DNA of 63,226 bases, filler included, from Reclinomonas americana ATCC 50394 (Eukaryota): NCBI GenBank assembly GCA_048213135.1. It is 14 parts of 14 records of this genome, joined end to end, with 100 filler letters (N's around TTAATTAATTAA, not from the genome) between each part and the next. Parts side by side here need not be neighbours in the genome. Positions count along the whole stretch, not along the records: positions 1 to 4,613 come from AFZH01022651.1; positions 4,714 to 9,838 come from AFZH01022652.1; positions 9,939 to 17,594 come from AFZH01022653.1; positions 17,695 to 28,616 come from AFZH01022654.1; positions 28,717 to 31,965 come from AFZH01022656.1; positions 32,066 to 35,472 come from AFZH01022657.1; positions 35,573 to 40,759 come from AFZH01022658.1; positions 40,860 to 44,192 come from AFZH01022659.1; 6 more parts are not named here. One strand, given 5' to 3'. Shown in pieces: positions 549 through 61,261 of this stretch (position 1 is the first letter of the stretch; the number at the start of each line of letters is the position of its first letter). The notes below the pieces were generated by a model that ran no database searches, was not told the DNA's origin, and worked only from the letters and a program-made list of their open reading frames with translations. The position numbers were made by a program, and so were the translations under genes.

Positions 549-3500
549 TCACCTCACTGGTCTCTTTGGCGACATGACCGGCGGCGCAGCAGCCGTGCGC
601 GCCTCTCGGAACGACGCCGATGTGGGCGTGGTAGGCGACATGGGAGACAACTGCTCGTCGTCGGCCTCCACTTCGTACGCAAAGCCGACTTGCCTTGCGC
701 GTCGCTCCGTGACACGGCCCGCACGCAACGGCGTTGGAAGCGGTTCCATGAATGCCGAGCCGGCGTCTGACGTGGCGTCGCCTGCCGACGACTCGGCGCC
801 CTCCCCGCCCTCGGTCGACCGCGCGCCCTTGCTGCTGGTTGGTCTGCGCGATTCGCGACTGCCAGGACGCATGGCACCGCTGCCACCAATGGTGATGCTG
901 CCGGCTGATGACGGTCGCGGCACAAACGAGACAGCCGACGGAGGCGATCGGTGCAGTCCTGCGCTGTCGCCGCGCCCCGCCGACTGCGGCCTCAGCACGC
1001 CCACTGGCGGCGCGGCGCCCAGGTCGGGTGGCGCCGGGGCCGCACCGACCACAGCAGCGATTGTGCCGTCCACGGCGGCGGCACGTGCTGTCGATGAGGA
1101 CGACGAGGACGCCGTGGTGGTGGTGCGCGTGGTGGCCGATGCGCCGGCCGCTGCCGACGGTGCAGCAGCAGCTGCAGCTGCAGCTCCCATGCCATCGATG
1201 CTGTCGGGTGGTTCGGTGCGGAAGCCGGACGATTGGGAGATGGGTCGCAGTTGGATGAGAGAGGAGCGGGGTTTGAAGATTTCGAATTCGTCTTCGTTGG
1301 GGAGCAGTTCTTCCCTGTGTGGGGGTGAAGGAGGAGGGGGTGAGGGAAGGAGGGAGAAGGGGAATGAGGGGAACTGGGTGAGGGAGACAAGGAGAGGGAG
1401 GCGAGGAGAGGGAGGCGTGGAGGAGGGACTTTCTTTTCTCTTTCTTTCTTGTGAAAGGAGAAAGGCGCATGAAGGACAAGGGACTTTCTGTTTCTTTTTT
1501 GAATTGAGAAGAGAGGAGCCGAAGGCGACTCTCTTCTCTTTGAAGGAGAGAGAGACTTTCTTTTCTCTTTCTTTCTTTTTTGAATGGGAAAAGGCACATG
1601 AAGGAGAAGGGACTTTCTTTTCTTTCTTTTGAATTGAGAAGAGAGGAGCCGAAGGCGACTCTCTTCTCTTAGAAAGGAGAGAGAGGCACCTCCTTTCTCA
1701 CTCATCAAGAAAGAGAAGAAAGAAAATCAGTCTCTCTCTCTTCTCTCATCAAGAAAGAGAAGAAAGAAAATCAGTCTCTCTCCTCATCACGAAAGAGAAG
1801 AAAGAAGATCAGTCTCTCTCTCTCTCTCACTCATCAAGAATGAGAATAACGAAAATCAGTGTCTCTCTCACTCATCAAGAAAGAGAAGAAAGAAAGTCAG
1901 TCTCTTCATCAAGAAAGAGAATAAAGGAAATCAGTCTCTCTCATTCATCAAGAAAGAGAAGAAAGAAAATCAGTGTCTCTCACTCATCAAGAAAGAGAAG
2001 AAAGAAAATCAGTCTCTCTCTCATACAGAGATGGAGATAAAGACAACGAGGCAGGTGGGCAGACAGAGAGAATGACACACTGTCAAGTGGTTCACTTGGT
2101 TGTCATGTATGTGTACGCGTACATGCAGATGGAGACCTGACGATGCGCGAAACTGCGACAGAGCTTTGCGACCAGACTCACAGGAGAAGCACAAAACAGT
2201 GACGACAAAGGAAAGGAGAATGAGGAGGAGGAGATAGACAATGCAGGAGAGACACGAGTTCAGAAACAAGCAAGATGACAGGAGCTCAAGGAGGAAAAAC
2301 ACAAGGCATGCGAAGAAGTTCGAGACAGATAGAAGAATGCAATCATGTTCTCTCTTTTGCCTATTTTTGCCATTTTGCGTGTCCTCTCCTGATCTGTGCT
2401 TCTCACATGTTTGTCTTTCCATTCAACTGCATCTTGCGTTCCCTGAATTCGTCGGTCTCTACTTCTCATCCTCTCACCTTTGCTTTCCCATCACGTTTTC
2501 TCTTGCACTCCAGCCTGCCTTCCATCTAATTCTACTGTCTCTCTCTCTCTTTCTCTCTTTCTCTCTTCTCCTTGTCCAATTCCTCTCACTTTCGCTTCCC
2601 CTTCAAGGCACGCCTCCTCTTGCACTCCAGCTTGCTTTCCATCTAATTCTACTTTCTCTCTCTCTCTTCTCTCTCTTTCTCTCTCTATTTCTCTCTCCCT
2701 TTCTCTCTCTCTCTCTCTTTCCCTTCTCCTTCCCCTCAACAAGACGCAACTGATCCGGCAACTCCTCGCCATCCACATACGCACGCTCCAAGTGATCGCA
2801 CATCTGCAGAAACTCCTGCTCGAGGGCCTCCAGTGCCTCCACATCCATGCCATCCATGTCCACGCCTGTCACGCAGTGAGTCAATCGACTTCCACTCGCA
2901 TTCTCTCTTCCACCACTCACCTCGCAACGACGGCAACCGCTTGATGGCGGTATTCGTCAAATTCTCATACTCCTCCCTCACCAGGCGGTACTGCTCGTAC
3001 AGTGAATCGCCGCGCTCCTGAATGTAGTCCAACTCGGCGTCGATTTCCTGCACGACATGATGAGCATTCCATGTCACACAACGCAAGGCATTGTACACAA
3101 ACGAAACTCCCATCTCCTCATCCACTCGTGCACGACTCTCGCGAATACCAGCCTGTCGCACGTACTCTTTCTCAATCCACTCGGCATTGCGTACGGCTGC
3201 AGTCTCTTGCTCCTCCAGCCCGTGCGCCTCGGCGGTGGTCTGCGGCAGGAAGAGTGAGAGGTGAGAATGTAGAGTGAGGACGGGAAGGGAAGCGAAAGAG
3301 AGTAACAGACCTGCTCCAGCTCCTCCTCCAGGACCTTCAGCTTGGCCTCCAGTCGGTCGTTCTTGGCAATGATCTCGGCGACTGGAAAAGTGGCAAAGGG
3401 AATCGATGGTGAAAAGAGAGATAAAAAGGAGAGAGGGTGGAAGAGATGAGAAGAGAAGCGCGGATCAGAAATGCATGAGTATGTTTGCTGGTTGGAGTGT

Positions 3501-6500
3501 CCCTGAATCACCCAACGCAACTCGCTTTCTTGTTCTTCTTCTCCTTGGCCAGCTTTTGCTTCAAAAACTCATTGTACATGGCCTCCAGCTCCTCCATTTG
3601 TTTCTGCTCTTGCTCCGACAGTGCTCTCTCCAGCGCCTCCGTCTGCGCACAGCAGTACAATCAATCCAAGATCCAACATGTTGTCACTGTGCTCTCCCGC
3701 AAACCTTGGCGATGTCCACACGCCGCAACGACTGCAACATGGTGCTCTTCAGTTCGTCCATTTTCGGCATCGGCAAGTCGTCCATGTCAAGGCCCTGCAT
3801 CACTCGGGCGGCCTTGGAGGATGAGTCGAGCTGCTCACGGAGTTCTGTGTTGCGGGCGCGCATTCGCTGCACTTGTTCCTGCAATGGGGAGAAAGAATGA
3901 GAAACAAGAATAGAATATAGAGAACATCGGCTCCCTCACGGCCATCTCTCTCTCCCTATTGCACCTTGATGCGGTTCAATTCCTCCTCTGCCATTGAAGC
4001 CTTGGTGACGGCGGCATTGGCCTTTTCTGCGGCCGCCACCTTGCTGGTGATCTCCTCTGCGCATTACCAATGGTCAGTCACTCTTTACAAAAAAAAAAGA
4101 GTGAGACTACGACGCGCAACTGGAGTCCGTGTACTGCTCCAACACCTCCTTGGAGAGAATGGAGGGCGCCAGCACAATGTACGAGTGTCGAGCACCGGCC
4201 GCACACCCAATGACTTCACGCTGTCGCAGCAAGCGCACTTCTCGCGGTGCCTTCACATTATTATTGTCGGCGTGTCCCAGCTGTCCGTGCTTGCCAAAGC
4301 CCCACGAGAAGACGCGATTGTCGGCTGCGGAGTTGAGGAAGGGTGTGAGACGGAGAAAGCTATGAAGAAAATAGGAAAGAAACCGACAAACCCGTTGTGA
4401 CCAGTGTGTGAAAGGCGGCAGAACTGGTGGCCACCTGCACGACCTTGTAGGCCGCCAGACCGTCAATCTTGCGTGGCGCAAAGGCGTTTTCCGAGTCACC
4501 GTGGCCCAGGCGCCCGCTGTTGCCGTATCCGAAGGAGAACAGGAGGCCAGAGTCTGTGAATTGCGGGGGGAAGAAGGGAAGGGGGAGAAGGGGGAAGGGG
4601 TGAGGGGGAAGGGNNNNNNNNNNNNNNNNNNNNNNNNNNNNNNNNNNNNNNNNNNNNTTAATTAATTAANNNNNNNNNNNNNNNNNNNNNNNNNNNNNNN
4701 NNNNNNNNNNNNNTTAGCTTGGGCGAGTGGTGCTCCGTGGTGTCACCCGTGCCCAGTTGTCCTACATGTTCCACAGTGAGGCCTTCTCTCTCCATCGCCG
4801 CCAGCAACAAGCACCAGGCGCACCTGAGCTGTTGTTTCCCCATGCCCACACGTCGCCGGCATCGGTACACGCCAGGCAAAAATCCCACCCGCACGCCACT
4901 CGTAAAATGCCCGAGCCCTCCAGGTCGTGCACCACTGTCGGCTCAAACACATCGGTCTGGTGCCCAAGGCCGAGCTGACCAAAGAAGTTCGACCCGCACA
5001 TTAGCAGATCGCCGACCTCTGCACGGAGGAGAAGTGGTGAAAATCAACTGGAAGATGTCTCCTACTCTAATGCTCAGCAAACCGGTGAGAATGGCAGTGA
5101 AATCGGCGCCGCAGCCGACAAACTTGGGTTTCCGTCGCACTTCGGTGAGACCAGGCACCAGCTGTGGAATCGGCTGCACCGGCTGCGTCAGCTGGCCGAG
5201 TCCGAGAGCGCCCTTGATGGTTTGGCCCCACGAAAAGAGCTGCCGGTCCTCTGCGAAATGATGGGTGAGTGGAGAGGCAAGCGGGGTGGGGGGTGGTAGG
5301 GTGAACGGAACCTGTCAAGGCAAGTGCGTGACTCGTGCCGGTGGCGAGCATGGTGACTTTCTCCGCCTCCAGGTGATTCATTGGGGTGAATTGGTTGATC
5401 TGTGGGGAGGGCAAAGGGGGGAAGGGGAGGAGAAGGCAAAGGGGGTGAGAAGGTGAAGGGGGTGAGAAGGCAAAGGGGGTGGGGAAGGGGAAGGCAAGGG
5501 GGGGTGAGAAGGCGAGGGGGGAGAGCAAAGGGGGAAGGAGAGGGAAGGGAGTGAGAAAGCGAGAAGGGGGGAGGGCAAAGGGAAAGGCAAAGTAGGGCGA
5601 AGGGCAAATTAGTGGAAATATGGGGACATAAATAGTGAAAAGAAGAAACAGAGACAGAAGTGTGAGACAGGAGTGAAAAAGGAATTGAAAGAAGCAAGAG
5701 GGAAATCGCAGAAAGCAGCGAAACAATCAGTGAGACAAGCAAGAAAGAAAACAGTGACCAAAGCAAAGCAGTCACAGCGAAAAGCAAGACAAAATCAAAT
5801 TAGAGCAAGACACTATCACAGCGACAGGGCGAGCCCTCTCCTTGTCCACCAACAAACCTCATCATGCTCCGTGTTCGCCAGCTGCCCAAACTGATTCGAC
5901 CCGCACGCGAATACGTTGGGTGGCACTACACGCAAGTATCGAATCAGACACCCACCCCACACAACTCAAACGTACTCACAGACGCGCAACATTTCAGCGG
6001 CAATCCCGACAGCGCGAGCGACATTTGCGCACCGGCCGCCAGCGCCGCCACCGGCTTCTTCTCCAGACCGAGCACTCGCTGCGGCACCGGACTGATCTCC
6101 AGTCTCTCCAAGCCCGTCTGTCCAACACTACCGTCACCCCACGCATACAGCAGACCCTTGTCTGTGCGCGCAATGGCGTGCTGGTAGCCGCACGCCACGT
6201 CGACAAACATGACCTTGCCGGCGGTGCTCTGTACCAGCGTCGGTGTGTCGACGACGGCGGTGAGCTGGCCGAGACCGCATTCGCCGTGCGAGTTGCGGCC
6301 CCAGGTGTACAACTTGCCCGTGTCTGCGAAGAGGGAGGAAAGAAGGGGAAGGAATGAAGGAGGAGGGGAGAGAGGAATATGAGGATAAGGGAAGGGGGAG
6401 GAGGGGAAGGGGATGGAGGAGGGAAACGAGGCAAGGAGGATTGGGATGGGGGATGTAGGAGAGAGAAGGAGAGAGACTGACAAACAGAGGAAGGGATGCA

Positions 6501-8543
6501 TCGAGACAGAGAGGGAGGGAGAGAGGGAGAGAGGGAGAGAGAGAGAGAGAGACTGCCAAAACAGGGGAAGGGATGCAGGGAGAGACAGAGTGGGAGAGAG
6601 AGATAGAGACTGCCAAACAGGGGAAGGGAAGTATGGAGCGATGTAGAGAGCGAGAGAGAGTGGAGAGAGACTGACTGCCAAAGTGGGGAAGGGACGCAGG
6701 GAGAGACAGAGAGGGAGAGGGAGACTGACTGCCAACAAGGGGAAGGAATGCAGGGAGGGACAGAGAGTGAGAGAGAGAGAGAGACTGCCAAACAGGGGAA
6801 GGGATGCAGAGAGGGACAGAGAGAGGGAGAGGGAGAGAGACTGCCAAACAGGGGAAGGGGCGTTGGGAGAGATGCAAGGAGAGCGAGAGATAAGGGATGA
6901 GTGAGGGAAGGAGAATGAGGAGGGAAACGAAGTGCAGACAAGAAGAGAGTGGAAAATGGCGACAACAGAGGCTGCGCGCACCTGTGACCGCCACGCTAAA
7001 GGCGTCGCCGGTGGCAATACGGACGATGAACACATCGGACGGCAACCGGACTTGCTTGGGAAAGAAGGCGATACTAAAGGCGCTGTGACCGAGGCGCCCG
7101 TCGTCACCGCTTCCCCTGTTGGAGGAATTGGAACTCACGGTGAGATCTTGGTGCAACAGAGATACTCTCCGTCTTCATGCACTCACCATGAGTACACCTC
7201 GCCAAGAAAGGTGAGTGCCATGGTGTGCGATTCACCACACTCGACTTGCGCCACTGGCTTGCCGACGAGGAACTCGACAAGGCGCGGTCCGAGTTGGTCA
7301 TTCGTGTCACCAATGCCTGCGTCGCCAAGTCAGGGTCGCACTGCATTGAGGCGATGGATGACGCGACTCACCAAGCTGGCCGTACTTGCCCCAGCCCCAG
7401 GAGTAGACCTGTCCCTCGTCTGTGCAAATTATCATAATAAGTCGTGCTCAACTTTTGATCACGCTGTGTGCGTTCTTTCCCCCCTCTTCCACCTCCTTCT
7501 CCTTACCCCTCCCCCCACCCACCTGTAATGCACGCCGTGTGCCCCGCTCCACACGCAATGTACACCACCGTCGTGTCCTTCAACGCCTCCACACGCCGCG
7601 GCAGGTACTGCATGCGCGTGTCGTGGTGACCCAGCTGCCCCTCGCCGCCCTCGCCCCACGTGTACACGTAGCCGTCGTCGGTGAGAGCTGCGCTGTGCAG
7701 CTCGCCGGCCGCCACCATCACAATGTTCTTGCCCTCCAGATACTCAATCTGCGCGGCCTCCGTGACGGACCATCTGCGGAGGGGGAGAAGGGGGTAATGA
7801 GAGAAGGGAGTGGATGTTTCTCCTTTCAAACTGAATGCGCAACGTGTGACCGAGTCCCAACTGGCCGTGCTGATTGTCGCCGAGGACGTAGACGTGGCCG
7901 CGTTCTGCAGTGATGATGAACAACATGTCTCTCTCTCCAACACAGGCTCCACTCTTCTTACGCACCAGTTCGCATGAGCAAGTGACTGCGACCCAGCGCC
8001 GCTGTCTCCACCGAGAATCCGCGCAGCTGATCGACGACTTTCGGCTTGACGACAATCAAATCGTCGAGTGGGTGACCGAGGGTGCCGATTTGATTGTCGC
8101 CCCACGCGTACACCTTGCCCGGGGCGGCTGTGCAGGCGGTGTCAGATAAAAAGGTGGGTGTGGACTGACGAATTCGTGATCGCGCACCATCCAGCAGCTG
8201 CGCCGCATCGATCAACCCTTTGCGCAACATGTTGGTGAACGAGGAGATCATTGGACCGCCCGTGTCCTGCGCCAGGGCGGCCTCCGCCGGCAGCGCAAAG
8301 CGACGGAAGCCGCGATTGACCATGGCGGCGCGATCGGCCACTCGACCGACCTGATGAAGGTGTGTGTGAGTGACGAAGAAAGAAGGGCATGTCAGTAAGA
8401 GACGGTGACGAATACCGTGGTGGGTGTCGCGAGTCCGCCACTGGACATGGAGGGCGCGACTGTGCCCGCCATTGAACCGGTGGGGGTGCTGGGGGCGATC
8501 ATGGAGCGGACGACGGAGCGAGCGGTGTCCTTGACGGCATAGC
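549..8543 (-). CDS. RCC1-repeat (beta-propeller) protein with C-terminal coiled coil and Ala/Ser/Pro-rich tail; about 22 exons, spans the linker at 4614-4713, 5' end not found
   Basis: Spliced exons give many RCC1 repeats (GKVYAWGDNQIGTLG, GYVYTWGEGGEGQLG, GKLYTWGRNSHGECGLG, RVFSWGFGKHGQLG, with VAAGELHSAAL/VACGYQHAIA), then heptad-rich exons at 2750-4055 and a last exon at 549-1314. GT-AG junctions keep frame. Confidence 0.88.
1400..2735. repeat. Intronic low-complexity repeats: ~130-nt duplication (about 1465-1680), ~40-nt CTCATCAAGAAAGAGAAGAAAGAAAATCAGTCTC units (about 1700-2020), and CT-rich tracts
   Basis: Repeated units visible directly; lies inside the intron 1315-2750 of the RCC1 gene. 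Confidence 0.8.
4614..4713. other. Artificial contig linker N44-TTAATTAATTAA-N44 (first of 13)
   Basis: Identical 100-nt block with stops in all six frames. Also at 9839, 17595, 28617, 31966, 35473, 40760, 44193, 48553, 49894, 56850, 59527 and 61262. Confidence 0.99.
6470..6880. repeat. Intronic ~60-nt degenerate tandem repeat (GACTGCCAAACAGGGGAAGGGATGCAG...)
   Basis: About 6-7 copies of GACTGCCAAACAGGGGAAGGG separated by GA runs. Confidence 0.85.
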
Positions 8544-16900: not shown

Positions 16901-17243
16901 CTGTGTGGAGGAGATGAGTGTCACACGTAAAAGGGGGAAGACACTGGCAGCGATGCGCACCCGGTGCACGAGGTATCCGAAAAAGACGGGAATGCCGACA
17001 ACGTAGAGCAGACCAAACACCCAAGAGAGGATCCACACCACAGATACGGAGCCGCCGGTGTATCTGGTGAAGAGATGTGGTGAGTCAAGCAGATTTGGGA
17101 TGTCTCGTGTGACACATGGCTGACGCAACGGGCACGGGCTGTCCCAGTTCTGCAGTGCGGTGCCACTCTGGTTGCATTTCAGCGTTGCCAGCAGGGTTCG
17201 GCAAATGGGCAGGTACGTGATGGTGATGAGGAAAAGCGCAAGC
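13949..17243 (-). CDS. Multi-pass membrane domain; probable C-terminal part of the large LRR gene upstream of the linker
   Basis: Exons encode LALFLITITYLPICRTLLATLKC...WDSPCPY...WILSWVFGLLYVVGIPVFF...YLYSPYERKMRYFKQVQLLESFVLLVV...AILAGFTLLYIIVRPF...VVNMIAIAILVFSLLF: at least 6 hydrophobic helices. Last exons tentative. Confidence 0.78.
15600..16250. repeat. ~18-nt intronic minisatellite GAGAGAACCGAGAAGAAG
   Basis: About 30 degenerate tandem copies in the intron 15234-16479. Confidence 0.9.
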
Positions 17244-46660: not shown

Positions 46661-48934
46661 TCAGTCATCGACATCGACGAGGTCGACGATCTCTTGCTGC
46701 GCGCTGCGGGAGGTTGATCCGCGAGACGGTGGAGTTGTGCGTTGGTGTTGTTGTTGTTGCTGCTGCTGCTGTTGTCGTTGTTGCTGCAGCTGCTGCCTTT
46801 CCAGTTGCTCGAGTGCGAGTTTCTCCTGCAGCCAGGCGAGTCCGCCGTCGCGGGTGGGCGTGAGCTGCAGGGCGATTTCGAGAGGGACGAGCTCGGGCGG
46901 TTCGGCTTCCGGCAGTGACCCGTCTGGTGGTGGTGGTGGTGGAGCTTCGACGGCGGCGGTGGCGGCCTCGCTGGCGGGCGGCTCATCGTCGGGTGCCGGT
47001 TCGTCGTCCTTGGACACTGTGCGCATGTCGGTGAGATCGCAAAGAGGGGCGACGGGAGAAAGAAAGGGAGGCGTGCGCGAAACAGTCCACTAGTTGTTCC
47101 GTGCTGGCGGCGGCGGCGGCTGCCGCTGCCGCTGCTGCTGCTGCAGCCGCATTTGCGGCGAGTTTGGCACGAAGCCACTGCACGTAGGTGACCTGCTGCT
47201 TGACGAATATACGCAGCTCGTTGTACTTGTACATGAGCTGCACGATGGGAAGTGCAGGCGGTCACACACTGACAAGTCTCAAAGCAAGACATAAAGGATC
47301 ACGCAACGGGGCCAATGACCCGCCGCCGCCTCAACCACGACAACACGACATCGCTCTCCGGGTAGCCCATCAACGAACGCGGTATCCGAATACCTTGCCT
47401 CTCCCACACTTCCAGCTGCTTCTGCTCTCGCCAGCACCTCCCTCTGTCAGGTCGATAACCATCACAGCACAAAGCACTCACGCGACCATCGACGCACCTT
47501 GAGCAAGTGGAACACACTCGCCACATACCAACGAGAAGCGTGCGCCAAGACCACCGTCGTTGCACAATTAGGGTGCAGAAGTACGTCCTCATTCTTGCTC
47601 TGTGACGTCTCCCTGAACTGCACGGTCCACCATTTTCAGCAGCTGCTCCACATCGTGCTGTTCACCACCACCACCACCACCACGTCACGCAACGTATTCG
47701 CTGATTTTGTTGAAGGCGAGTCCGCTGGGTGCCAACGGATTCAGTACTGTGTGTCGGTCCATCCCGCCAATCACCGGAACCTGGAATTGGAGCGTCACCA
47801 ACTCGACATCATCCGATTGGCACATGCACAGTTGACATCGAGGATCCAGGTCCAACACTTTGGCGCCCGCCTTGAGCGAGACGAACGGGTAAGCTCGATG
47901 AAGGTAATACTAATGCAGGTACACAACACAATCAGGAGCAAGCGGAGCGAGTTGTTGCAGCGTGGTGTGCGTCTTACCAAATGCTCATCCGAGGTCTTCG
48001 GTACCAACACCGACGCCACGCTCTCGGTGGCCTTGATGAGATCCAATGCCGGCTGGAACAAATCACCTGCAGGATGTTCCTCTGTCAGTCACAGCGCGCA
48101 AGTGCGTGGCAACGGGCACAGCAGGGTCACGCACGGCGGCTGGACATGGTGCCGTGATGCTTGTCGTGCAAAATGTTGCCCTTCTCCAACGAGTGCGTCA
48201 TGAATTCGATAAAAGCCTCGAACAGAGGCACAGTGGGCATGGGCAATTCGGTAACCTCTGCCGCCGACTGACCATCTGCGTTCGCCCGATTGCGAGCACG
48301 ACGCGGCGCTGCGGTGGAGTTGCGTGGCGGAGTGACAATGCCGTCGGGTTTCGGAAGCGGAGCACCGCTGCCCGTCTTCTCTCTGCTCGAGGAGAGTTTG
48401 AGTGGCAAGGAAAAAGACGGCAAGAGGAGCAAGGCGCGCAACTCGAGAAACTCCACATCCGAGTCCACATCGGCGTCCTCCTGGTCCAACGTCACCACCG
48501 TGTCGGCTTTTCTCTGGCTAGATGCTGCTGCATCGACGGTCACCGTGGTCGCNNNNNNNNNNNNNNNNNNNNNNNNNNNNNNNNNNNNNNNNNNNNTTAA
48601 TTAATTAANNNNNNNNNNNNNNNNNNNNNNNNNNNNNNNNNNNNNNNNNNNNTTGCATGTGCAACTGTCGATCATCTTCGTCTTCTACATCCTCAATCTC
48701 CTCGGGCTGATCAGTGACTTCTGTGAGAGGCTTCCCTGGTCCACCGAGAGCTTTCCGCGCGCGCGCTCGACCACGTTTGCGTGACCTTTTGCTGCGTTTT
48801 TCCTCGTGCTCTTGCTCTTCCTCTTCGTGCTCCTCGTCCTCGCCTTCGTCCTCGACAGCGAGGTTGATGTGACTGTTGCTGTTGCTGTGCTCGGTGGCGT
48901 GACGCGACTCGTCAGATCGTCGCCTGGACGACAT
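46661..48934 (-). CDS. Hypothetical protein(s) with acidic N-terminus and polyA/polyQ C-terminal coiled coil; probably one gene across the linker
   Basis: Coding-like segments MSSRRRSDESRH..., PLFEAFIEFMTHSLEKG, LMYKYNELRIFVKQQVTYVQWLRAKL, LAWLQEKLALEQLERQQLQQQ. Exon chain only partly resolved. Confidence 0.5.
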
Positions 48935-49421
48935 CTTATCTCTTGATTGATTGTTGGCAAACTTGCAAGTGTGGGACATAAAACTTGCTGCGTGTTGTCT
49001 GCTTTTGTTGCACTTTCGATGAGTGGAAGGGGCAGACGACTGTGTTATGTGCATATATGAGAGACCTTGAGCATGCGCTGCACTGTGTACCGTATTGTAG
49101 TCGACGTCGACGTTCGACGTCCGTCAATACCGAGCGTAAAAGATGCCAGCGAGGCCATAGAGACCGACTCCGTGTTCCCCGTATGAGAATACCACTGCGT
49201 ACATAAAAGCCCACGGTCGTAGCCGAAGAGCATACGGTGAAGGCAACAAAGAATTCAAATTCGAACATGTACAACACAGACAGCTGCAGCTGCAAGTGGG
49301 CATCTCGCGTGAGGAGACGACAGCTAGCTCCGTACGCTCACTCGTTCACCACTCGTCTTGCACGCAGCGGCAGTTCACGCTTGTCCGGCAAGTCAGTTTT
49401 CAATTGTCCATCCTAACATCA

Positions 49422-51304
49422 ATGAACGATCGCGAAGATCGCCGCCTGGTGCTCCGGCATCAGTTGCGTGCCCCGCCACAAACAACAGCGTCCTTTATGC
49501 CTCTCTCTCCTTCCGCTCACTTGCGTTCTCTCACACACACAGAATGGAAAAGCTCATGGCCGAGGTCAGCTTACCGGTCGAAGAACGGCACTTTTTCCGG
49601 GCGTTGTTGCTCAAGCCTGCGGTCGCCACCTTCACAGTCTTGTCCAACATGGAGGAATGGGTGTGTCTCTCAGCCGCTCTCTCTCTCTTCCTCCTCTCTC
49701 TTGCTCCTCAGTGTGCGCGCGCGTGTGTGTGTGTCTCACACGACAATCAACGGCCAGATTTCCGTGTTGCGACAGCACAAGAAGCGCACTCTGGAGGTGC
49801 TCAAGGTCATTCAGCAGCGTGAAGAGTGCCTCGATGCGTTGCACGAGCTCGGCCTGTTGCTGCTTGATCGCTCTCGAAGGTCCTTCACTCTCANNNNNNN
49901 NNNNNNNNNNNNNNNNNNNNNNNNNNNNNNNNNNNNNTTAATTAATTAANNNNNNNNNNNNNNNNNNNNNNNNNNNNNNNNNNNNNNNNNNNNGATCGAT
50001 CAATCATTCGTTGCTCACCTTGAGCGCACACAGTCAACCGATGAAGCGCATTCGCACCGAGGTGCTGCGCAACACCAAGGCACTACAGATGTTGTCGTTA
50101 CAGGTGGTCGATCGCATACAAAAGTGGCGCGATCCCTCCGCGCTCACTCGACCGTGGCCGTTCATGTGGAAGGGTACCCCTGTCTCTCTCTCTCTGTCTC
50201 TCTGTGTGTTGTGACGCGGGGGCCTCCGCTCATCATCATCATCATCGCGCCGCAGGTCAGAACTACATTCGCAAGATGAGTGGCGACACGCAGCTGTTGG
50301 ACACAATGGAGATCTCGCTGGTGTTGCCGATTACCTTCAAGGATAATCCGCTGCTGCGCGACTTGGATGGTGTGTTGCATCGAATCACCAAGGCCGAGCC
50401 GGCTGATGTTGTGCTCAAGACGCGCGTGGGCTTTCGTGGCTACGATCGCCGATCCGATCGCCGTGGTTTGTTCGGGTGTTGTATTCTTGTGTGTGACGAC
50501 CAAGTGCCGACCACTGTCTGCAGAGCACACGAAGGTGATCCGGTGGGTGGAACGCATCATCAGCGAGGAGGGCACGCTACAGAGGCTGCTGTCGCGCGAG
50601 TGCGTCCACCACCGATCCCTCCCGCAACACATTCCGCGCTCGTTCTCATTGTCGCGCGCACAGGGTGATTGACATGCAGCGCCAGGGTCTCATTCTACCG
50701 TCGCTGCAGACCAAGATCTGCACTCCTGGTGAGTCACGCGCGTTGCTTGCAATCCGCGCCACTGACGACACACACTCACGGCGTGAGCATAGAGTGGCAA
50801 CTGCTGCCGGGTTCCTCGACGCCATCCAATCTGTCGTCCATGAATGCCATGCTGGAGCCGCCATCGCGACCCATGTCGGCCTCGGCCTCTCTCGGTCGTG
50901 CCTCGCGACCAGTCGCGGCGGCCACCGCTGCCTCCATCTTCTCGTCGCCGTCGTCGGCCGGCCAGGAATCGTCGCAGAGAACCGACAGCGATGAGGAGAG
51001 TGAGAGCGACGCCGACGACGAGTACGACGAGGTGCCGCGTACGCACCAGCTGCACCAAGCGCCGCCTCCCGACAAGAGCCAGCTGAGAGTATCCACAACC
51101 TCATCGCACCTCTCCTCGAGCGTCGACAAGACCTTGTCGGCCGTCACTCCACCTGCGTCCGCAACGAAACCTTCGCAGCCACCGCCACCACCACCACCAC
51201 CACAAGCACAGGCACAGGCATCCCGCGCCGGCGCCTCCTCCCCGTCGTCCTCGTCCGCCAGCGACGACAGCGACGAATTCGAGGACGACGACGACGAGGA
51301 ATGA
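49422..51304 (+). CDS. Hypothetical helical protein with Ser/Pro/acidic tail; spans a linker
   Basis: Exons join to MNDREDRRLVLRHQMEKLMAEV...TLEVLKVIQQREECL...SLQVVDRIQKWR...PFMWKGQNYIRKMSGD...WVERIISEE. Confidence 0.7.
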
Positions 51305-51362
51305 AATTCGTGTTGAATAATGACAAGAGAAAGAAGACTGACTGTGTACACTCAGCCGTGCA

Positions 51363-53546
51363 TTACACCAGCTGATTGGGTGGCGGCTGCGAGCTGCGTC
51401 GTGCTCGCTGCTTCTCCCCGAGTTCCTCATCGAACAACTCGCCATCCGCCACGCCGCCTTCGCCATCGCCGTCGGCCATCAGATCGTCGGCGTAGGGCAT
51501 GAACGGCGTGACGGTGGCCATGGAGGCGGCGGTGGCCGGTGGGGAGAACACCATGGCCGTCGTGGTGGTCATGGTGGTGGTGGCGCCAGACACCACCGGC
51601 GTCGGCGTCGTGGTGGTGGTGGTGGTGGTCGTCGTCGAAACCACCGGACCATTGCCATTTGCTCCCTGCTTGCCGCCGGAGGCCAAGTGAGCGGCAACTC
51701 GTGCACTGGGTCGACGGACGTTGCGGTTGGGTGGGGCTCGAGCTCCGCGTCCGCCATTGGGCGCATCCGTCGATTCCGCCACGTCGACAATCGCCGGCGA
51801 CACAAAGTTCGGGCTGGTCAGGCGCCACCGCCACACTCCCATCACGGCCACCCACATCACCAACGTTGTGACGAGGACAGTGGCCACGATGCTCACACTC
51901 GGACCCGCATACACCAGTGCCGGCTGCGCGAGAATGAGAGCAAGAGAGGGTGAGTTCGGCAAGCGAGCGCGGAGACTGCTGAAAGCGACATACCTTGTCG
52001 CCGCCGAACGGATCCGGCTCATCCTCCGGCCACAGCGCCACGCAGGCGAGCAGCGACAGCAGGAAGACGAGCAGCTGCTTGCCAATGAGCAGCCACGACC
52101 GCACATCAATGCCCCACACTGTCGGAGTCTTGTGGGCGGATTCTGGGGCGTGTGGCGACGTCCGAGTCGGCAGCTGGAACGCGAACGTGTTGAGGACGCC
52201 GTAGAAGAACACGCGAAGCGCACAAGCCGCGCCGTACGCTCTGCATGTGTAGGAGGATGAGTGGTCGGCAGCTACAGCGCTCTCTATCGAGATGCGGGCG
52301 CTCGCAACGGTTCGTCAATATCGGCCTCGGTCGTCGCGCGTCGATCGTGATACCACGAGACAATGGTCGACAGCGCAAAGTTGCCGAGCAACGCGAACAT
52401 CGTGATCCGGGTGCTGCGGCAAGGTCAGCAAACGTGCCCACACGACACACACACACACACAGACGAGCACTCACCCCAGGCTGTGCACCGAAAAGGCGGT
52501 GAACAGCACCAGCGCAGCGCAGTGCGTGCCGGCGCACAGTGCCGCCAGGAAACGCGTCACTGCCGAGCCACTCTCCGCAACGACGGCGTCAAAGTTGGTC
52601 AGGCAGCCGACCGACAGCGACGACACAAACACGGCCGAGAGGAAAATGCCGTTCTTCAGCGCCTCCACGTTGGAGATGCCACAAACGAGCAGCATGATCA
52701 GTGTTGGCGCAGACTGCATCGCATCCGCACGCCGGTAAGAGAGACAACACCGAACACTCAACAGAAATGATCAATGCAGCCGCGCACCAGCAACAGGGCA
52801 GCCAGCGTGCTAAACGTAAACGCCGTGGCCTCACTGTGCACATAGTCGACCGGCGACTCGGCCGTCTTGCGACAGCAAAAGCAGAAGCCGTACGTCCACG
52901 ACGACGTGTTCGAGGCCGCGCTGACCATCCACGCCGGCAACGGCGGCTCCTCATCCGCCTGCTCCCCATTGACCTCCGCATCCCGATACCGCATCGCTCG
53001 TCGCCTTGCCGCATCCGCACCAGTCTCCGCCGGCACATCCAGCGCCAGTGGCAGCAACGCGCGCACCCGCTGACTCGGAATGCACGTAGCCAGCAGATCA
53101 GCACGCACAAAGCTCGACACGCCCTTGAGCAGCGGCACCAGGTGCCATGCGCCGACTGTGGCTGCTGCGGCGGCGGCCATCACACGACGCATCAACAAGA
53201 CGATCTTTGCAGTGTCGACATCACCCTCGTCGCGCAGCGCAAACAGTCGCCACGAGGTGAGCATCGCCAGCAGCGAGGAGACCGCTGAGGAGACAATCAG
53301 AGTCACCAGAAGCGCAGTGGCTGTCACGCGCTCGGTGTCGTTGTGAGGTCGCGTCGACCATTGGTGAATGAGCGCCACACACAAGATCCACCCCTGTGCA
53401 GTGCAGAGTGAGCGCAAGAGTGTGCGTGTGTGGAAGAGTGCGCGCAAGAGTGAGTGCGTAACAAGTGTGTTGACGACGCCAGTGGTGAGCACAAAGACGC
53501 GCGAGGAGAGCTGCATTGCGCAGTCGCGCGCTCGTGCCGACGACAT
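51363..53546 (-). CDS. Polytopic membrane protein of unknown family
   Basis: More than 8 hydrophobic segments over several exons (ALLVTLIVSSAVSSLLAML, FTFSTLAALLL, FLSAVFVSSLSV, LLVFLLSLLACVALW, IVATVLVTTLVMWVAV), then a Thr/Pro-rich tail. Confidence 0.65.
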
Positions 53547-53999
53547 TTTTTTTGCTGAGTGAGAGGAGTGCTCGCAAAACGCGCGCGAAACACTGTCTGC
53601 TGACGGAGAATGAGCTCGCAGCAGTGCCCAGTGTGCGGCTCTGCTCTGCGTATATGTCGCACAGCGCACCCTCAGACTGCGCTCGTTGTGTGTGAGCAAG
53701 CAGAGGTGCGTGTGTCTCTATCTCGCCTGCGGCATGAGTGATCTCATCATTCATCATTGACGCAGTGTTTATTCCCGTTTGGTGCCTCCGATGAGACTCT
53801 GCAGCAGTGCACAGTGACACTGCCGCCTGTGAGTGCGGGCTCGCATCTGCACGAGTTCTATCGCGTGTACGCGGAACGTTGCGTGTGTGTGTTCTGCTCC
53901 TCGTGACCTGCTCATCCGCTTATGAGACAAGAGGAGACGCAGGTGTGGCGCGCAGCTCGGCTGCTGCTGGACCCAGTTGAGACAGAGACTCCAGAGCTG

Positions 54000-56849
54000 T
54001 CAGTCGACAGGGTCAAAGATGCGCTGCTGTTGTGTGCGCAGGTGAGCCTCGGTGTGTTTCTCCGCGTTGCAGCGTGCAAGGCAAGGCGCAACTCGTGGCG
54101 ATTGACCGTCGTCGCTGGGCGGATAGTCGGCGGCTTCGTCGTCCATCTCTGCTGTCTGCATGTCCATGTCGTCTTCGTCGTCGTAGACCTCGTCGTCGCT
54201 CTGCAGGCGAGTGAGTCGAAGTGGGGGGGGAGGCAATGAAGGTGCAGAGAACTAAACCTCGGGGAACTGGTTGAGCCAGGCGCAGATGGTGTTTCGTGCG
54301 CACAGCGAGCGGCGAAGCACCTCCAGTCGCCCGTCCTGCACACGCACAGAGGATGGAGATTAGCAGATGATGGATGGAGGGGGGATGGGCAGGTTCGCGA
54401 ATTGACACCTTCCACAGGGCGAGCAGCGAGTCGGCGCCGCCAGTGGCAAACATGGTCTCGCCGAGTGACACCGCCACTTCGACGGAGCCACTGTGTGCGC
54501 ACAGCTCGCCCACCTTGTCGAACGTGTAGATCTTGCGCGGACGACTCATTCTGGAGGGAGAGAGAGAGAGATGAGTGAGGCGTGCGGCGAAGAACCATGT
54601 CAATGCAGCGGCCGACGACGCAACGAAGAGACTTGGTACGTCTTGACCGTCACTGGTAGTGATGGTGACGTACTGTTTACACCGCACACAGTCAGCGACA
54701 CAACTATCGTACCAGCAACAACACGCCCGCAACGCAACGGCGAGGACGCGGAAGCAGCCGAGGCCGCCACCGAGGGCGACGATGCCGACGAGGCCGCGGA
54801 CTTGCCGCTGGCTTTGGCTGGCACGGCGTTGGTGGTGCTCGGGAATGTCTGGCACACCAGTCAGTCGCAAAGTACATGGCGAGTGATTTGGGGAGCACGC
54901 AACAGAGCGCGAGCCCGACGACGGCTTCCGCTGCTGCAGATCCCACACGAGGATCGCCGAATCGGCGGCGCAGGTGATCAGTCGGCGCCTGTGGCGCGGT
55001 TGGTCCAACAATGACACGATGCAAAAAAAAAAGGAGGGCGGCGAACGCAACCCTTCATGTGAGACCACCAGAGCCTGGATGGTGGCGCGGTGTGCTTTCG
55101 GTACGTGGCCGACACACTCGCCAGTCTCCATATTGTACACACAAAAACCGGTCCCCGACGACATGGCCACCGTATCCTGTGTTTCTTCGTGAATAAGGAT
55201 GCATACATGCGCGCAATGAGGGGAATGACGCACCCGTGACACCACGCGAATGCATCGTACGGCGAGCGGATCCGGCATGTTCTTCTGTGTGTACGACTCA
55301 AAGTAGTTGACGACTCGCAGCGGCACTGGCAGGCCCACAGGGCACATGGAGTGCGCCACCTCGTCTCCACTGGGCGCTGCGGATTGCACACTAAGCTCGC
55401 CACTCAACGTAGCAGCAACCAGCGGTACGTACCTGGAGTCGAATTCCACAGGACCACCATGCCGTCGAGCGATGCAGACACGAAGCGGCTGTTTGAGAGC
55501 GAGCGCAGCGTGGAAATGGCCTCCCGATGAATAGACAAACGTCCCAGTGCCGTACCGTCGCGCCAATCATACACAACTGTGAACACCGGGGGGAATAAGG
55601 TGGACGGGATGTGAGCTCCTACAGTATGTGATTGCAACGCAACATAAATCAGCCAGCGTCGAGCCCGTCACAATGCGACAACAAGTGAGGGGAACGATGC
55701 CCATTAAACCTGCAGCGCGCCCACCCACCACCGGTCAGGCACTCCTCCACCTGGATGAACTCCCATGGCGCGCGGCTACGCAACTCTCTTGCTGGTCATC
55801 CGGATGCCGGTGTATCCGCCGATACCCGCTGGCCAGCACACTCATACTCCACAAAAGCATGAACGAGTCGTTGCCGCCGGAGCACATCCACGTTCCATCG
55901 AGATTGGTCATCACCTTGACAGCACCACGGTGCTCGTCGAGCACATGAGCCAGAGAACCGTCCTCGCTGTGCCACACCTGCAGTACCCGATCGCACCGTT
56001 AGCAACCCATAGCGTTCGACTCCCCTCATACTCGATCAGCACACCTTGATGGATTCGCGGCGGTCCACAGACGAAGACACCACATACTCGCCCATTTCCA
56101 GCAACGCAGTAATGGGACCCTCGTGTGCCCGCACTCTCCACACGCGCTCCCCCGACCCTATCCGCCACATGCACACCCACCCACCATCGCACCCGGTGGC
56201 GAAACAACGACTGCGCGCGCACATGAGCGGGGAGGGAAGCAAAAAAATCACGCAGGCGCAGAAAACACAAACCCCTCCTCCGAGTGCACCAGCACCGCCA
56301 CACGGATGCGGTCGGTGTGGCCGAGAAGCACCTGCAGTTCCGTGTATGGATTCGCGGCTGTATTATCAAAGAAGCTGGCGGAGTCTTGAGACATTGGGGA
56401 GGTTGGCGACGAGGCCGAGCCGGCGGCCACCGACGCTCCCATTGCCGCGCCGAGCATCACTCCTGCAACGGCGTGTGACGCGAGGAGGCAACAAGGAGAG
56501 GCAGAGGATGAGAGAGAGAGAGAGAGAGGTGGCACACACCTCCTGAAGCCGCTGGGCTCACAGCACGTGCGGCCGCCATGTGAGCCGCACGACTCGACGA
56601 CGGCAACGAGTTGGAACGCGACGTACGACCCCCACCCGTCCCTGCTCCAAGCCCATCAGAAACACTCGCGGTGCTGCCCCAGTCACATATACACACACAC
56701 TCACCAGGCAACGACATGGTCTGTCGCAACGCCTCGGCGCTCTCCATGGCGTCAGCATCGCTGACTGTGCTCGACGACGACGACCGCGGAATGCCGAGTC
56801 GCGGAGACACAGAGCTGTCGCCCGAGTTGGAGGAGCGAGTGGAGGCCGG
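54000..56849 (-). CDS. WDR41: WD40-repeat protein WDR41-like; 5' truncated
   Basis: NPYTELQVLLGHTDRIR and GELCAHSGSVEV...GADSLLALWKDGRLEVLRRS resemble the characteristic N- and C-terminal WDR41 segments (from memory, not a search). Multiple GH..WD repeats over about 16 exons. Confidence 0.85.
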
Positions 56850-56949
56850 NNNNNNNNNNNNNNNNNNNNNNNNNNNNNNNNNNNNNNNNNNNNTTAATTA
56901 ATTAANNNNNNNNNNNNNNNNNNNNNNNNNNNNNNNNNNNNNNNNNNNN

Positions 56950-59526
56950 TTCTGTCGGTGCGGCTGCAGGGCGACAGTTCGTGTGCGTCATTGTCCACCG
57001 CAAATATTGTGGACGTGAGTGCATCGAACATGACAACGTCGACGAGTGGAGGAATCGACACACTTGTTGCGACGTTCGTCGGCGGTCTGAACGTGTCCGG
57101 GTCGTATGCTGTGTGCATTGAGTACGCATCGACACCTGGATCGTTTGTGAGTGTTGGATTGAGTCGGCTGTTGATCTGTTGCGTTGCGAGTGGATGTCCG
57201 TGGTAATCGTCGGCGGTTCGCTGACATGTCTTACTCCTCTGTGTTTCTCTCCTGTGCGTGCTGTCATCTTGTGCAGCCGAGTCGACTGGTTACTCGCCGG
57301 CCACTGCAGTCAAGGGCGTGACGACGGCGCTGAGTGTTGTTGGAACGCAACTTGTACCGACGACAACTGTGCTGTCGTTGCGACTGCAGGGCGACAGTTC
57401 GTGCGCGTCATCGTCCACAGCAAATATTGTGGACGTGAGTGCGTCGAACATGACAGCGTCGACAAGTGGAGGAATCGACACACTTGTTGCGACGTTTGTC
57501 GGCGGTCTGAATATTTCTGGGTCGTATGCTGTGTGCATTGAGTACGCATCGACGCCCGGATCGTTTGTGAGTGTTGGGTCGAGTCGGTTGTTGATTCGTT
57601 GCGTACAGAGCGTGGAAATGTCAATTGCCGAGTTTTTTTCTCTGACACTGAGTGTGCAGCAAATGCGACAACCTTCACACCGACGAGCGCCCTCATCTCC
57701 TCGTCCACACCAGTCCTAATTGCTGGCGATGCACTTCAGCCAGGCACGAGCGTGCGGAGTGTTCGGGTCGAGCCAGCGGCGTCGTGTTCGACTGGTACCG
57801 GAGTCAACCCCGCGACCGGCACAGTTGTCATGTTGGCTGCAAACTTGTCGGCCACCATGTCCGGCTCGACGCTTACTGCGACGCCTGCCACTCCGTTCAC
57901 TGTGTGCGGTGCATACGTTGTGTGCATCGAGTACGTCGGACAGCCAGATGTATTCCGTCGAGTTGATGCAACGACGCAGCTATTGATTCGTTGCGTGCGC
58001 CGTGGGACATTTTCTGCTCAATTTACAGAAGCTCACAAATTGTTGCTATAACAGCTTGCTCCAATACGGTTGCCCCATTGACAATGTTTGCTGGGTCGGC
58101 TGGGTCAACTGTCGTTGTCACTGTGACCGGTACAGCTCTCCATGTGAATCAAAGTGTGCGAGCTGTTCGGTTCGAACCGTCGTCAACGTGCACCGCTCTG
58201 AGCAACCCGGTTCCCTCGGGGGTTGTGCTTGCAGCGAGTATCGCATCGAGCATGGACATGACGCTACTGCGTGTCAGTCTTTCGGCATCGGGAATCCCTG
58301 CCGGAACATACAGCGTCTGCGTCGATTACTCTGCTGCCGATGCACAAGGCCAGTACATCAACGTCGGTTCTACACAACTTCAAGTTGGTAAGTGACTCCG
58401 CCTTCCACACTTGTGGCTATTGTGTGGAGTTCTGGCATTAACTCACTGCGACTGACACAGTGACTGACGCCGCGGTGTCTGTCAGCCCTCGAGGCCTACC
58501 GATTCCAGTCTCTGCAGCCACTGTCCTTACGGTGACAGGAGGCCCGTTGACTGCCAGTGATCAAGTCATGCTTCTTCAGATCGATGCCAATGGCCTTGGC
58601 ACGTGTGATCAGCCAGCATCGAACCCAACTCTGGCGACCACGGTTCTGTCGGTATCAGGCACAACTCAGCTGACGGTGGCATTGAGCAGTGCGATTAGCA
58701 CTGGCAACACCTATGTTGTGTGTCACCAGGCATCTGGCGTTGGAATATTCAGACCGCTCCAGGACAGCAGTTTGCGATTCTTCTCGGCAGGTGCGCCACA
58801 CGATCATCACTCGTTGTATGTATGATATCTTCGCCTTATACTTTGATCGCCGCAGCTTCTGTCTCCAGCGTGTCACCAGTGCAGTGGAATCTTGAGCGAA
58901 CCCCCATCACGATCACTGTAGCGGGTGCTGGTCTCAGCGCGCGGGACTCGTTCACTGCCGTGGCAGTCGGTAGCAGTTGCAGTGCTGCTGCTGTGCCCGG
59001 ATTGCAGTTTACTCTGCCGCCAGCCGTCACTTCGTTCAACAGCCAAATCGAAGTTTCTGCAGCGGTATCCGCTGCGCAAGGATTCGCGTTCAAGCTGTGT
59101 GTGCGACCTGGGGGCGAAGCAATACTTGCCGCCGCATCGATTCCATTTGCGCAGCCATTGACGGTTGTCTCAACAACTGGAATGTCACCGACCGCCGTCC
59201 CGCGGGTCGCCTCAGTCTCCGTGACGATTGCGGGCGCAGGCTTTCCGTTCCCCGGTGGAAACTTGCTTGTAGTGGTATGTTGTTGTGTTTCGAGTGCGCC
59301 CACCGTTAGAATCCGCATTGAACCGCATCTGTCTTGTTGCTTTTTAGGTCGCGATGGGCTCGTGCGCCGGAGGAACAACTCTGCCCGCAGGAACTGTTCA
59401 GCTGACGTCAGTTTCGCAAGCGACGGTCACAATCGACACTCGAACAGCAAGTTCTGGCGACCAGTTTATTGTGTGCTTGCGTGCTACGACAGCGGATTCG
59501 TTTGCGCCAGTTGGCAGTACGCCATT
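56950..59526 (+). CDS. Ser/Thr/Val-rich protein built of ~110-aa beta-sandwich (Ig/IPT-like) repeats; both ends truncated
   Basis: At least 7 repeats of the pattern SP...T.TV.G......C......G.Y.VC..Y. Most are encoded one per phase-1 exon. Confidence 0.8.
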
Positions 59527-59631
59527 NNNNNNNNNNNNNNNNNNNNNNNNNNNNNNNNNNNNNNNNNNNNTTAATTAATTAANNNNNNNNNNNNNNNNNN
59601 NNNNNNNNNNNNNNNNNNNNNNNNNNTCGTC

Positions 59632-59686
<55 letters not shown>

Positions 59687-60546
59687 ACACGCACACACTC
59701 TCACAATTTCATGCACTTGTGCATGCATTGCTCACTCCTCTCTATTCTTTCTTTCTCTCTGCTCTCACACTCTCCCTTCTCTTCTCTCTCTTCCCCTCCC
59801 TTCTCTTCCTCTCTCTCTCTCTCACACACACACATTCTCCCTTTTTCTTTCCCTCATTCACTCTCTTTTTTTATCTTGTTTACATTACTCACCCACAACT
59901 TCAACATCTGCGACGGGTTATGTAGCTCACACGTTCCGTTGTGTGCGGCACGCCCGCGGCCTTCGTCTCTCAGCATGGCCGCATCCAACAAATCCAGCTC
60001 GTCATCACTAGCAGCCACAGAGGCGCGAGAGACGCGCAGGCGACGCCCGTGCTCGTCGGAGAGAGAGGCGCCCATGTGTGAAAGACAACAGCGCGCGAGG
60101 CTTGGCACAAAGATGAATAGAAAAAAAGGGGACAAGAATAACCTGTCACGTTTTGCCGGATTACATAAGAAATGGGAGTCGAGGCACAGGAGAGGAGGAG
60201 GTAGAGGAGGTAGTGAAGTAATGACATGCGCCGAGTTGCTGCTCCTTTCTCCTCGTGCGCTGTGGAACACTTGCGACGTCGACGTCATATATCGACGTCG
60301 ACGTTCACGTGATAGATAGACATTTTGCAGTTGCCTCAATTGATCGACAAAGCAATGCGCGCGCCAGTGAGTGGCGTGTAACGGCCACATCAGCGACGTC
60401 GTGTGGTGACTGCAGTGAAGTTGGCAATTTTGGCGCCAAATCTTAAAGTTTTCAACCGTTTTCTGTTCGACTTGGCGCGCTGCGCATAACTTAAGGCCAT
60501 GAGAACACGATTTGACTCTCTTTGTGTGTACACTCACGAGGGCATC

Positions 60547-61261
60547 ATGCGCCTGCTGCTCTGCTTCGCGCTCATCGCTCACTTGCTCGTTGTCACCTCG
60601 AGTTTCGTTTGTGTGTGTGTGTGTGTGTGTGTTTGTGTGTGTGTTTTGCCCGAACATGTGCACCCACAGGTTTGTACGTTCTGCTCACACACTCTCTCGT
60701 TGGTCACAGACGCCCAGACAGTCACCACCGCCGTTGCCAGCAACATCACTGGCACCACTGCCACTCTCAATGCATGGGTCAATCCCAACAACGTCGCTGG
60801 AGGCACCACCAACTCCTTTGAGTGGTCTCTATACACCGCCGCGATTGGTGTCTCTTCGGCCACTGTCGCCACCTTTGTGGGCACGGCGGGCACCTCGGGA
60901 ACGACGGATGGCGTTGGAGCCAGCGCATTGTTGAATACGCCAATGGTTTGTGCGCGAAAGGTGACCCTGCTGTGCACTTTCGCTGACAGTGTGCGTGTGT
61001 GCTCTCTCCACAGGGACTGGCCTTGGACGCGGCAGGCAACGTGTACGTGGGCGATTACGGGTTTGACTTACTTCCTGTTGTCTGTCGATTGTTGATTCGT
61101 CACTTCTTGCTCTCTCACTGCGCGATGATGATGGCAGCAACTGTCGCATTCGATGCATCACACCTGCAGCAACGGTGACCACGTTTGCTGGCACAACATG
61201 CGGCCTGCTTGATGGCACAGGAGTGGCTGCTCAGTTCAAAAAGTACGCTCCTGCTCTTCAT
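60547..61261 (+). CDS. Secreted protein with FN3-like segment and NHL repeats; 3' truncated
   Basis: Signal peptide MRLLLCFALIAHLLVVTS; VTTAVASNITGTTATLNAWVNPN; TFVGTAGTSGTTDGVGASALLNTPMGLALDAAGNVYVGDYGNCRIRCIT...TTFAG...DGTGVAAQF. Confidence 0.85.

Follow-up and report, generated by a model that had tools for sequence, protein, structure and literature searches.

Introns in a 63-kb stretch of the genome of Reclinomonas americana ATCC 50394 (assembly GCA_048213135.1; 63,226 bases analysed, hereafter the window) appear to begin in two different ways, which raises the question of whether the last base of an exon decides which 5' splice site follows it, and how a splicing machinery might read both. 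Below, a slash marks the exon-intron boundary, H stands for A, C or T, intron positions are counted from +1 and exon positions back from -1, and each donor is located by the coordinate of its +1G.

The presence of a second donor class in the window is confirmed. Exons ending in G carry G/GTG(C/A)GT-like donors with a conserved G at +5 (normal class), and exons ending in A, C or T carry much more rigid /GTTGCG(T/C) donors with a conserved G at +6 (shifted or GTT class). The initial annotation of the window had listed 45 hand-traced donors of the second kind, and all 45 read H/GTTNNG at their coordinates and on their strand (GTTGCG 40, GTTTCG 3, GTTACG 1, GTTGAG 1; -1G in 0/45). The introns measure about 65 nt; CT(C/G)A(C/T) is their branch site and CAG their acceptor. 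They behave as GT-AG introns: GT is the start at 45/45 sites, the frame is kept across 13/13 introns of a sedolisin gene, and 28/45 sites fall in frame-consistent models. Judged by these sequence features, the 45 sites are the 5' ends of spliceosomal introns, and both classes of 5' splice site are set by the last exon base.

Donor class follows the last exon base

We modelled the genes of the window with a Viterbi gene finder that combines a three-periodic coding model, intron composition, an acceptor matrix, a movable branch-site matrix and a length model, and lets the score decide between strands. In the blind run every GT had a donor score of zero, and in the learned run donors were scored with a self-learned table of intron positions +1 to +6. 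Exon bases were never used; introns touching N or a sequence end were left out of the -1G counts. GTTGCG was the commonest donor hexamer of the blind run (20/149 introns, followed by GTGCGT with 11), and it opened 28/159 introns of the learned run. The -1 base was G in 4/36 GTTNNG donors versus 55/110 others in the blind run (Fisher p=2.6e-5), and in 4/43 versus 62/114 in the learned run (p=1.5e-7), so that the proposed tie between donor class and the -1 base was borne out in both. Normal donors with +5G had -1G in 39/51 cases of the learned run; the 12 left over agree with the "about 12" exons not ending in G that had been counted by hand on a normal donor. The share first put at about a third of introns stands for the window, where 43 of the 157 modelled introns are shifted, and for the window only. 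The gene finder recovered 21/45 of the listed sites blind and 28/45 after learning. Its flaws include in-frame introns that were read through and some plainly wrong calls (GTCTCT donors).

The same dependence can be read from word counts on the sense strand, as mapped by a gene finder ignorant of donor sequence past GT. GTTGCG preceded by A, C or T occurs there 55 times against 18.1 expected (AGTTGCG 14 vs 3.5; CGTTGCG 27 vs 6.4; TGTTGCG 14 vs 8.2), whereas GGTTGCG occurs 5 times against 4.4. Antisense counts of these 7-mers lie near expectation. Because the sense excess is limited to GTTGCG preceded by A, C or T, the -1 dependence is found without any intron model. The words enriched on the sense strand after G are those of the normal class: GGTGCGT (14 vs 6.5), GGTGCGC (16 vs 9.5) and GGTGAGT (13 vs 3.2). 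The depletion of G/GTTGCG need not mean that this donor is forbidden: with -1G in place, part of the motif may be enough.

Comparison of the two classes

We compared the 45 listed shifted donors with 39 modelled introns of the form G/GT(A, C or G)NG, whose +5G is a matter of selection. Shifted donors have +4G in 41/45, +5C in 44/45 and +6G in 45/45; normal donors have +3G in 30/39, and their +4 is open (C16, A15, T7). The base that follows is alike in the two classes one position apart, with T35 C10 A0 G0 at +7 of the shifted class and T28 C7 A3 G1 at +6 of the normal class, and the inner dinucleotides of the shifted class (GC, TC, AC, GA) recur in the normal donors GTGCG, GTGAG, GTACG and GTTCG. 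The downstream consensus thus lies one base further from the cleavage site in the shifted class, and the intron sides align with one extra T after GT, the shifted class being far more rigid. The exon sides do not follow: the -1 base of the shifted class (A20 C13 T12 G0) is unlike the -2 base of the normal class (A16 T16 G6 C1). The suggestion that both classes collapse to one offset motif is supported for the intron side and not for the exon side.

Downstream, the classes look the same. The branch motif CT(C/G)A(C/T) is found in both with near-equal counts, at a median distance from the AG of 18 nt (shifted) and 16 nt (normal); the introns are 67 and 65 nt long and have pyrimidine contents of 0.63 and 0.59, respectively, with p>0.2 in all 3' comparisons, and the acceptor has C at -3 in 36/39 and 32/39 introns of the two classes. 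Shifted introns are spread over phases 0, 1 and 2 (11/13/15), while few normal introns after G-ending exons fall in phase 2 (16/18/5; 5/39), a pattern that fits a -1 base dictated by the codon.

GTAAGT is the near-universal optimal donor, yet NGTAAGT occurs only once on the sense strand of the window. Its scarcity and the dominance of G at +3 hint that the small nuclear RNA (snRNA) arm that pairs with these donors differs from the textbook one.

A possible offset within one spliceosome

The explanation that we favour, with moderate confidence, is that one major spliceosome reads two donor classes, and that its intron-side pairing is offset by one base in the GTT class. Because the classes share their 3' signals and align with a one-base offset, we infer a single spliceosome as the simplest reading. 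The pairing that normally reads +3 to +6 (by U1, then by the U6 ACAGA box) would be set one base deeper in the GTT class, which would leave the additional U in a bulge or a mismatch, and cleavage would stay before the first GU. Where coding does not allow -1G, a fully matched intron-side helix would stand in for the contact lost on the exon side, and GCG(T) would be near-invariant because this helix must compensate for the missing contact. The canonical U1 arm offers +5C no partner, so the RNA that pairs here probably has a complementary G, which could be supplied by a changed 5' arm of U1 or by a second variant of it. More tentatively, a dedicated snRNA arm complementary to GUUGCGU (in a U1 variant, or in U1 and U6 that co-evolved) might serve about a third of the introns in the one-base-off register, codon by codon according to the last exon base, and be shared with at least one relative; we regard this fuller version as possible and rather doubtful. 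If true, the major spliceosome would use a second code for 5' splice sites throughout the genome.

Several results weigh against an offset of this kind. All counts come from the single 63-kb window. Seventeen of the 45 listed sites were missed by the gene finder and rest on the motif, the 3' signals and the frames traced by hand. At the RCC1-repeat junctions 7843 and 5990, alternatives scored against a homologue profile range from +0.6 to -1 bit and the junctions are not separated, the GTT/GC alternative differing from the reference by +0.3 and -0.3 bits. The difference between -1 of the shifted class and -2 of the normal class argues against a pure shift of the whole helix. Rfam found no snRNA gene in the window, at the gathering score or at E<=1. 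Finally, the shifted U1 register first proposed, with +1G in the C9 slot, brings A/GUUGCGU no gain on the canonical arm: its predicted duplex (-1.4 kcal/mol, only 3 pairs) is no more stable than that of A/GUGCGU (-1.4 kcal/mol), G/GUGCGU reaching -5.0 kcal/mol. Equal duplexes mean that pairing would profit from the offset only with a different snRNA, and shifted pairing with the canonical arm does not account for the near-invariant C at +5. As the canonical arm gains nothing from the shift, altered or paralogous snRNAs are plausible in this lineage.

The main rival, which we consider unlikely though well ahead of those discussed below, is that two RNAs do the recognition. A second U1-like (or U11-like) snRNA complementary to GUUGCGU would bind unbulged and with no need of -1G, and the ordinary U1 would read G/GTGMGT (M, A or C). 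The far greater rigidity of the GTT class at +4 to +6 speaks for such an RNA, as does the inability of the canonical U1 arm to pair with GCG at these positions, and a tight intron-side motif without exon-side consensus resembles U12-type sites. Branch motif, spacing, length and acceptor are nevertheless the same in both classes, whereas known minor-spliceosome introns have a branch site of their own, and the match between +7 and +6, together with the shared inner dinucleotides, is the prediction of a single reader with an offset.

Exact junctions in a sedolisin gene

The best-placed junctions are those of a sedolisin gene (S53 peptidase; Table 1), where the -1 rule is kept in 13/13 introns. 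Its seven shifted donors come after A or C, six of them GTTGCG and one GTTACG (43294); its six G/GT donors (42437, 43804, 43974, 44409, 44642, 45235) read GTAAGA, GTCTCT, GTGATG, GTGCGT, GTCCGT and GTTTGC. We built a profile from 84 of 120 homologues (500-830 residues retained) and used it to score all frame-keeping GT/GC..AG alternatives up to 45 nt from the junctions (239 variants). No alternative outscored the traced junction at 7/13 introns, three shifted (42650, 42966, 44860) and four normal (43974, 44409, 44642, 45235). The donor at 44860 lies directly upstream of the exon with the catalytic-serine region. The other six junctions fall in variable, unconserved stretches, where many alternatives score slightly higher.

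These junctions bear on a second rival, that the exons end in GTT and the introns are of the GC-AG type (NGTT/GCG...), with no shifted GT donor at all. GCG does follow GTT at 40/45 sites, and this parse comes within 0.3 bits of the GT parse at two RCC1 junctions; at the three shifted junctions in conserved sedolisin regions, however, the extra residue costs 4.3-6.3 bits. The shifted introns occur in all three phases, so that every such exon would need a GTT end whatever its codon, and GT stands in first position at 45/45 sites. We regard a GC-AG parse as very improbable.

GTTGCG as a word and as a possible mobile end

GTTGCG occurs 92 times on the two strands of the window, against 37 expected from mononucleotide frequencies or about 47 from a second-order Markov model. 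The donor-blind map places 61 of these on the sense strand, 25 antisense and 6 between genes. Could a common word simply have been picked as donor wherever it lay near an exon end? The 17 sites missed by the gene finder would fit such tracing bias or chance, as would the 26 sense-strand occurrences beyond the initial list. Against it, antisense occurrences are at the expected level and the sense excess of ~38 is about the number of donors claimed, and the donor-blind model finds GTTGCG on its own. The 3' signals point the same way. Branch and acceptor signal 40-150 nt downstream is stronger after the 45 sites than after 26 antisense or intergenic GTTGCG (Mann-Whitney p=6e-8) and than after 800 random sense GT (p=1.6e-8), and the best acceptor lies at a tight 50-76 nt in 30/45. 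By eye, most of 20 minus-strand sites missed by an earlier run have CTRAY and then CAG 50-76 nt downstream; 2750, which has a GA-rich repeat downstream, and 54092 look doubtful. We hold tracing bias or chance to be very improbable.

Equally remote is the idea that a mobile intron element (introner) with a GTTGCG end of its own gave rise to the GTT introns by copying. It would explain one 5' motif repeated ~40 times and the uniform short lengths. The 80-nt flanks of the 45 sites, however, exceed 50% identity outside the 7-nt motif in only 1/990 pairs, which argues that the sites are not copies of one element, and normal-class introns share the same length and 3' features. Introner-like introns were rejected on this lack of similarity beyond the splice signals. 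The donors 57178 and 57598, which are partly paralogous, lie in an internal repeat of ~420 nt on the plus strand of one gene (57066-57200 and 57486-57620), with near-identical exon ends, so that the 45 sites represent about 44 independent cases. Tandem Repeats Finder reported no array over 56950-59526.

A related reading frame with translated introns

A search with the RasGAP exon returned P0341, an open reading frame of 269 residues that covers 39649-38911 on the minus strand, with 82% identity over the best stretch. To judge from its translation it clearly reads through genomic DNA of a related organism: it holds the orthologous exons with translated introns between them, plus one intron absent from the window, between LVILR and YLNPAIAV. 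DNA behind P0341 was not found in metagenome contigs. Its donors were read by codon logic from the translation, assuming GT-AG ends and exon ends as in the window. Codons force C/GTTR in the intron orthologous to 39548, A/GTTYTG in that orthologous to 39175, G/GTCNGT in the extra intron and G/GTNCG in the intron after KVLQ; the intron orthologous to 39387 fits C/GTTGGG, a donor that its codons do not fix. GTT would thus follow non-G and a non-GTT donor would follow G in 4/4 resolvable introns, three of them orthologous to introns of the window.

Two of these positions are exceptions in the window itself. The donor at 39175 (minus strand) reads A/GTGCGT (A/GTGCGTGG), a normal donor after a non-G exon, and at the position of the intron after KVLQ the window has G/GTTTCG at about 38913, a shifted donor after a G-ending exon. 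The latter opens an in-frame, stop-free intron (38850-38913, minus strand; CAG/GTTTCG...CTCGCAG) in the RasGAP-like open frame, which the gene finder read through; most homologues match its two sides separately, with ~20 residues skipped. A third exception, G/GTTGCG after a G-ending exon, lies at 20386 on the minus strand.

A sequencing or assembly artefact, in which the true donor is GTGCG and a T was over-called, could be imagined in an assembly as fragmented as this one (14 contigs in 63 kb) but is the least credible explanation of all, since over-calling would be indifferent to the last base of the exon, the 13-intron sedolisin gene has exons without frameshifts, and P0341, by its translation, encodes GTT at two orthologous donors.

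Relation to known splice-site systems

Links between the -1 base and intron positions are familiar from gene finders with maximal-dependence donor models, where -1G is statistically tied to +5G. The window resembles these models in that link; they describe the presence or absence of consensus bases, whereas here the whole intron-side motif is displaced by one base. U12-type introns have an RTATCCTT 5' motif, a TCCTTRAC-like branch site of their own and no -1G requirement. The GTT class is like them in its rigid intron-side motif and its indifference to -1G, and unlike them in having GTTGCG rather than RTATCCTT and the same branch site as the other class. U12-type introns were rejected as a candidate on their 5' motif and on the CTSAY branch motif and 3' features shared with the normal class.

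The nearest parallels are the noncanonical U1 registers of human 5' splice sites, known from the work of Roca and Krainer and validated for 3119 of 201,541 sites (1.5%) and proven in use with suppressor U1s; among predicted sites, 68 have a bulge at +2/+3 and 51 a bulge at +3 (Tan et al., 2016; PMC4856993). As in these shifted or bulged registers, the window has a GU donor, a consensus one base further in and cleavage at GU. The human registers are treated as rare exceptions. Unlike them, the shifted class makes up 43/157 modelled introns, depends on the -1 base and has a near-invariant GTTGCG; the register is one that we infer.

A division of 5' splice sites into two main classes has also been described, one exon-side (AG//GU, read by U5 loop 1) and one intron-side (//GURAG, read by U6 ACAGA) (PMC9803359; PMC11732430), together with LUC7 classes (PMC11842720). 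The trade-off between an exon-end G and intron-side strength, in which sites lacking -1G depend on a strong intron side, is common to these and to the window. As described, however, those classes keep one register, with G at +5, whereas here the G moves to +6 and a U is inserted at +3. As far as these accounts extend, neither the human registers nor the two-class view describes a displaced register that depends on the -1 base and serves a quarter to a third of introns. Full-text literature searches turned up only primers and unrelated uses, and no account of GTTGCG donors as a class; figure logos and supplements lie beyond such searches, and an earlier description in a genome paper is possible.

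If the offset is real, this genome would offer a natural setting in which to ask whether U1 or U5/U6 fixes the cleavage site, and to study the active-site slack between GU and the ACAGA helix and the co-evolution of snRNA arms and splice sites. Gene finders with a single donor matrix will misplace many exon ends in it, as our own models did in missing 17/45 sites.

Shifted donors and gene content of the window

Shifted donors are found in several genes on both strands (Table 1), including three that the initial annotation had not listed.

Table 1. Positions of genes and shifted donors in the window.
Feature	Position	Strand	Shifted donors (+1G)	Observations
RCC1-repeat gene region	2745..7843	-	7843, 5990, 4120, 3521, 3107 (GTTTCG), 2750	5990, 4120 and 3521 recovered by gene finder
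Shifted donors	17124..20767	-	20767, 20590, 19917, 19061 (GTTTCG), 18291, 18123, 17129	All seven in learned run
Shifted donors	24004..29937	-	29937, 29625, 29287, 24180, 24009	0/5 recovered; CTRAY branch-like motif and YAG at 50-90 nt after each
Donor T/GTTGCG	34066..34071	-	34071	Best acceptor at 73 nt; missed by gene finder
RasGAP/CRAL-TRIO/RhoGAP gene region	36336..40759	-		Gene models; Pfam RhoGAP and CRAL_TRIO_2 matches
RasGAP-region shifted donors		-	40201 (GTTGAG), 39548, 39387, 37860, 37714, 37462, 37251	From sequence
Sedolisin (S53 peptidase) gene	42185..45517	+		13 traced introns; spans linker 44193-44292; clean open frames after splicing
Donor A/GTTGCG (sedolisin)	42650..42655	+	42650	0/19 alternatives better; runner-up GTT/GC (GC-AG), -6.3 bits
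Donor A/GTTGCG (sedolisin)	42966..42971	+	42966	0/5 alternatives better; runner-up GC-AG parse GTT/GCG, -4.3 bits
Donor C/GTTGCG (sedolisin)	44860..44865	+	44860	0/2 alternatives better; runner-up GC-AG parse GTT/GCG, -6.1 bits
Further shifted sedolisin donors	42271..43568	+	42271, 43116, 43294, 43563	Found in both gene-finder runs; profile does not discriminate
Donor T/GTTGCG	46087..46092	-	46092	Recovered in both runs
H/GTTGCG donors beyond the initial list	47238..52308	-	52308, 48442, 47307	Called by gene finder
WD40-repeat gene	54087..55784	-	55784, 55643, 54903, 54738, 54624, 54092	54903 and 54624 recovered; rest with plausible 3' signals except doubtful 54092
Shifted donors	49463..60607	+	49463, 57178, 57598, 57990, 60602 (GTTTCG)	57598, 57990 and 60602 recovered

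The window consists of 14 contigs of 1.2-10.9 kb (GC 55%), separated by thirteen 100-nt linkers of the form N44-TTAATTAATTAA-N44, the first at 4614-4713. The order and orientation of the contigs at linker 44193-44292 are supported because the sedolisin gene spans it. Long open frames gave Pfam matches to RCC1 repeats, LRR, WD40, TPR, BiP-type Hsp70, RhoGAP and CRAL-TRIO; the RasGAP-like domain was named by eye and from distant homologues, and the sedolisin was found by homologue search. Identity to the best homologue is 60% for the sedolisin, 66% for the C-terminal part of BiP and at most 43% for RCC1. C and T are enriched on the sense strand of genes, a strong asymmetry that follows gene direction. 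The commonest hexamers of the window are (AG)n/(CT)n and (TG)n, which form many runs, and TGTGTGT occurs 129 times in sense and 32 times in antisense.

Over the window, Rfam gave no match of any family at the gathering score and, at E<=1, only weak ones, microRNA-like or SNORD59-like. Three of the latter (C/D box; 26-27 bits, gathering score 45) stand in a row on the minus strand, at 1739-1796, 1864-1918 and 1937-1996, in what the models take for an intron of the RCC1-repeat gene; they may represent a cluster of small nucleolar RNAs inside that intron, or chance.

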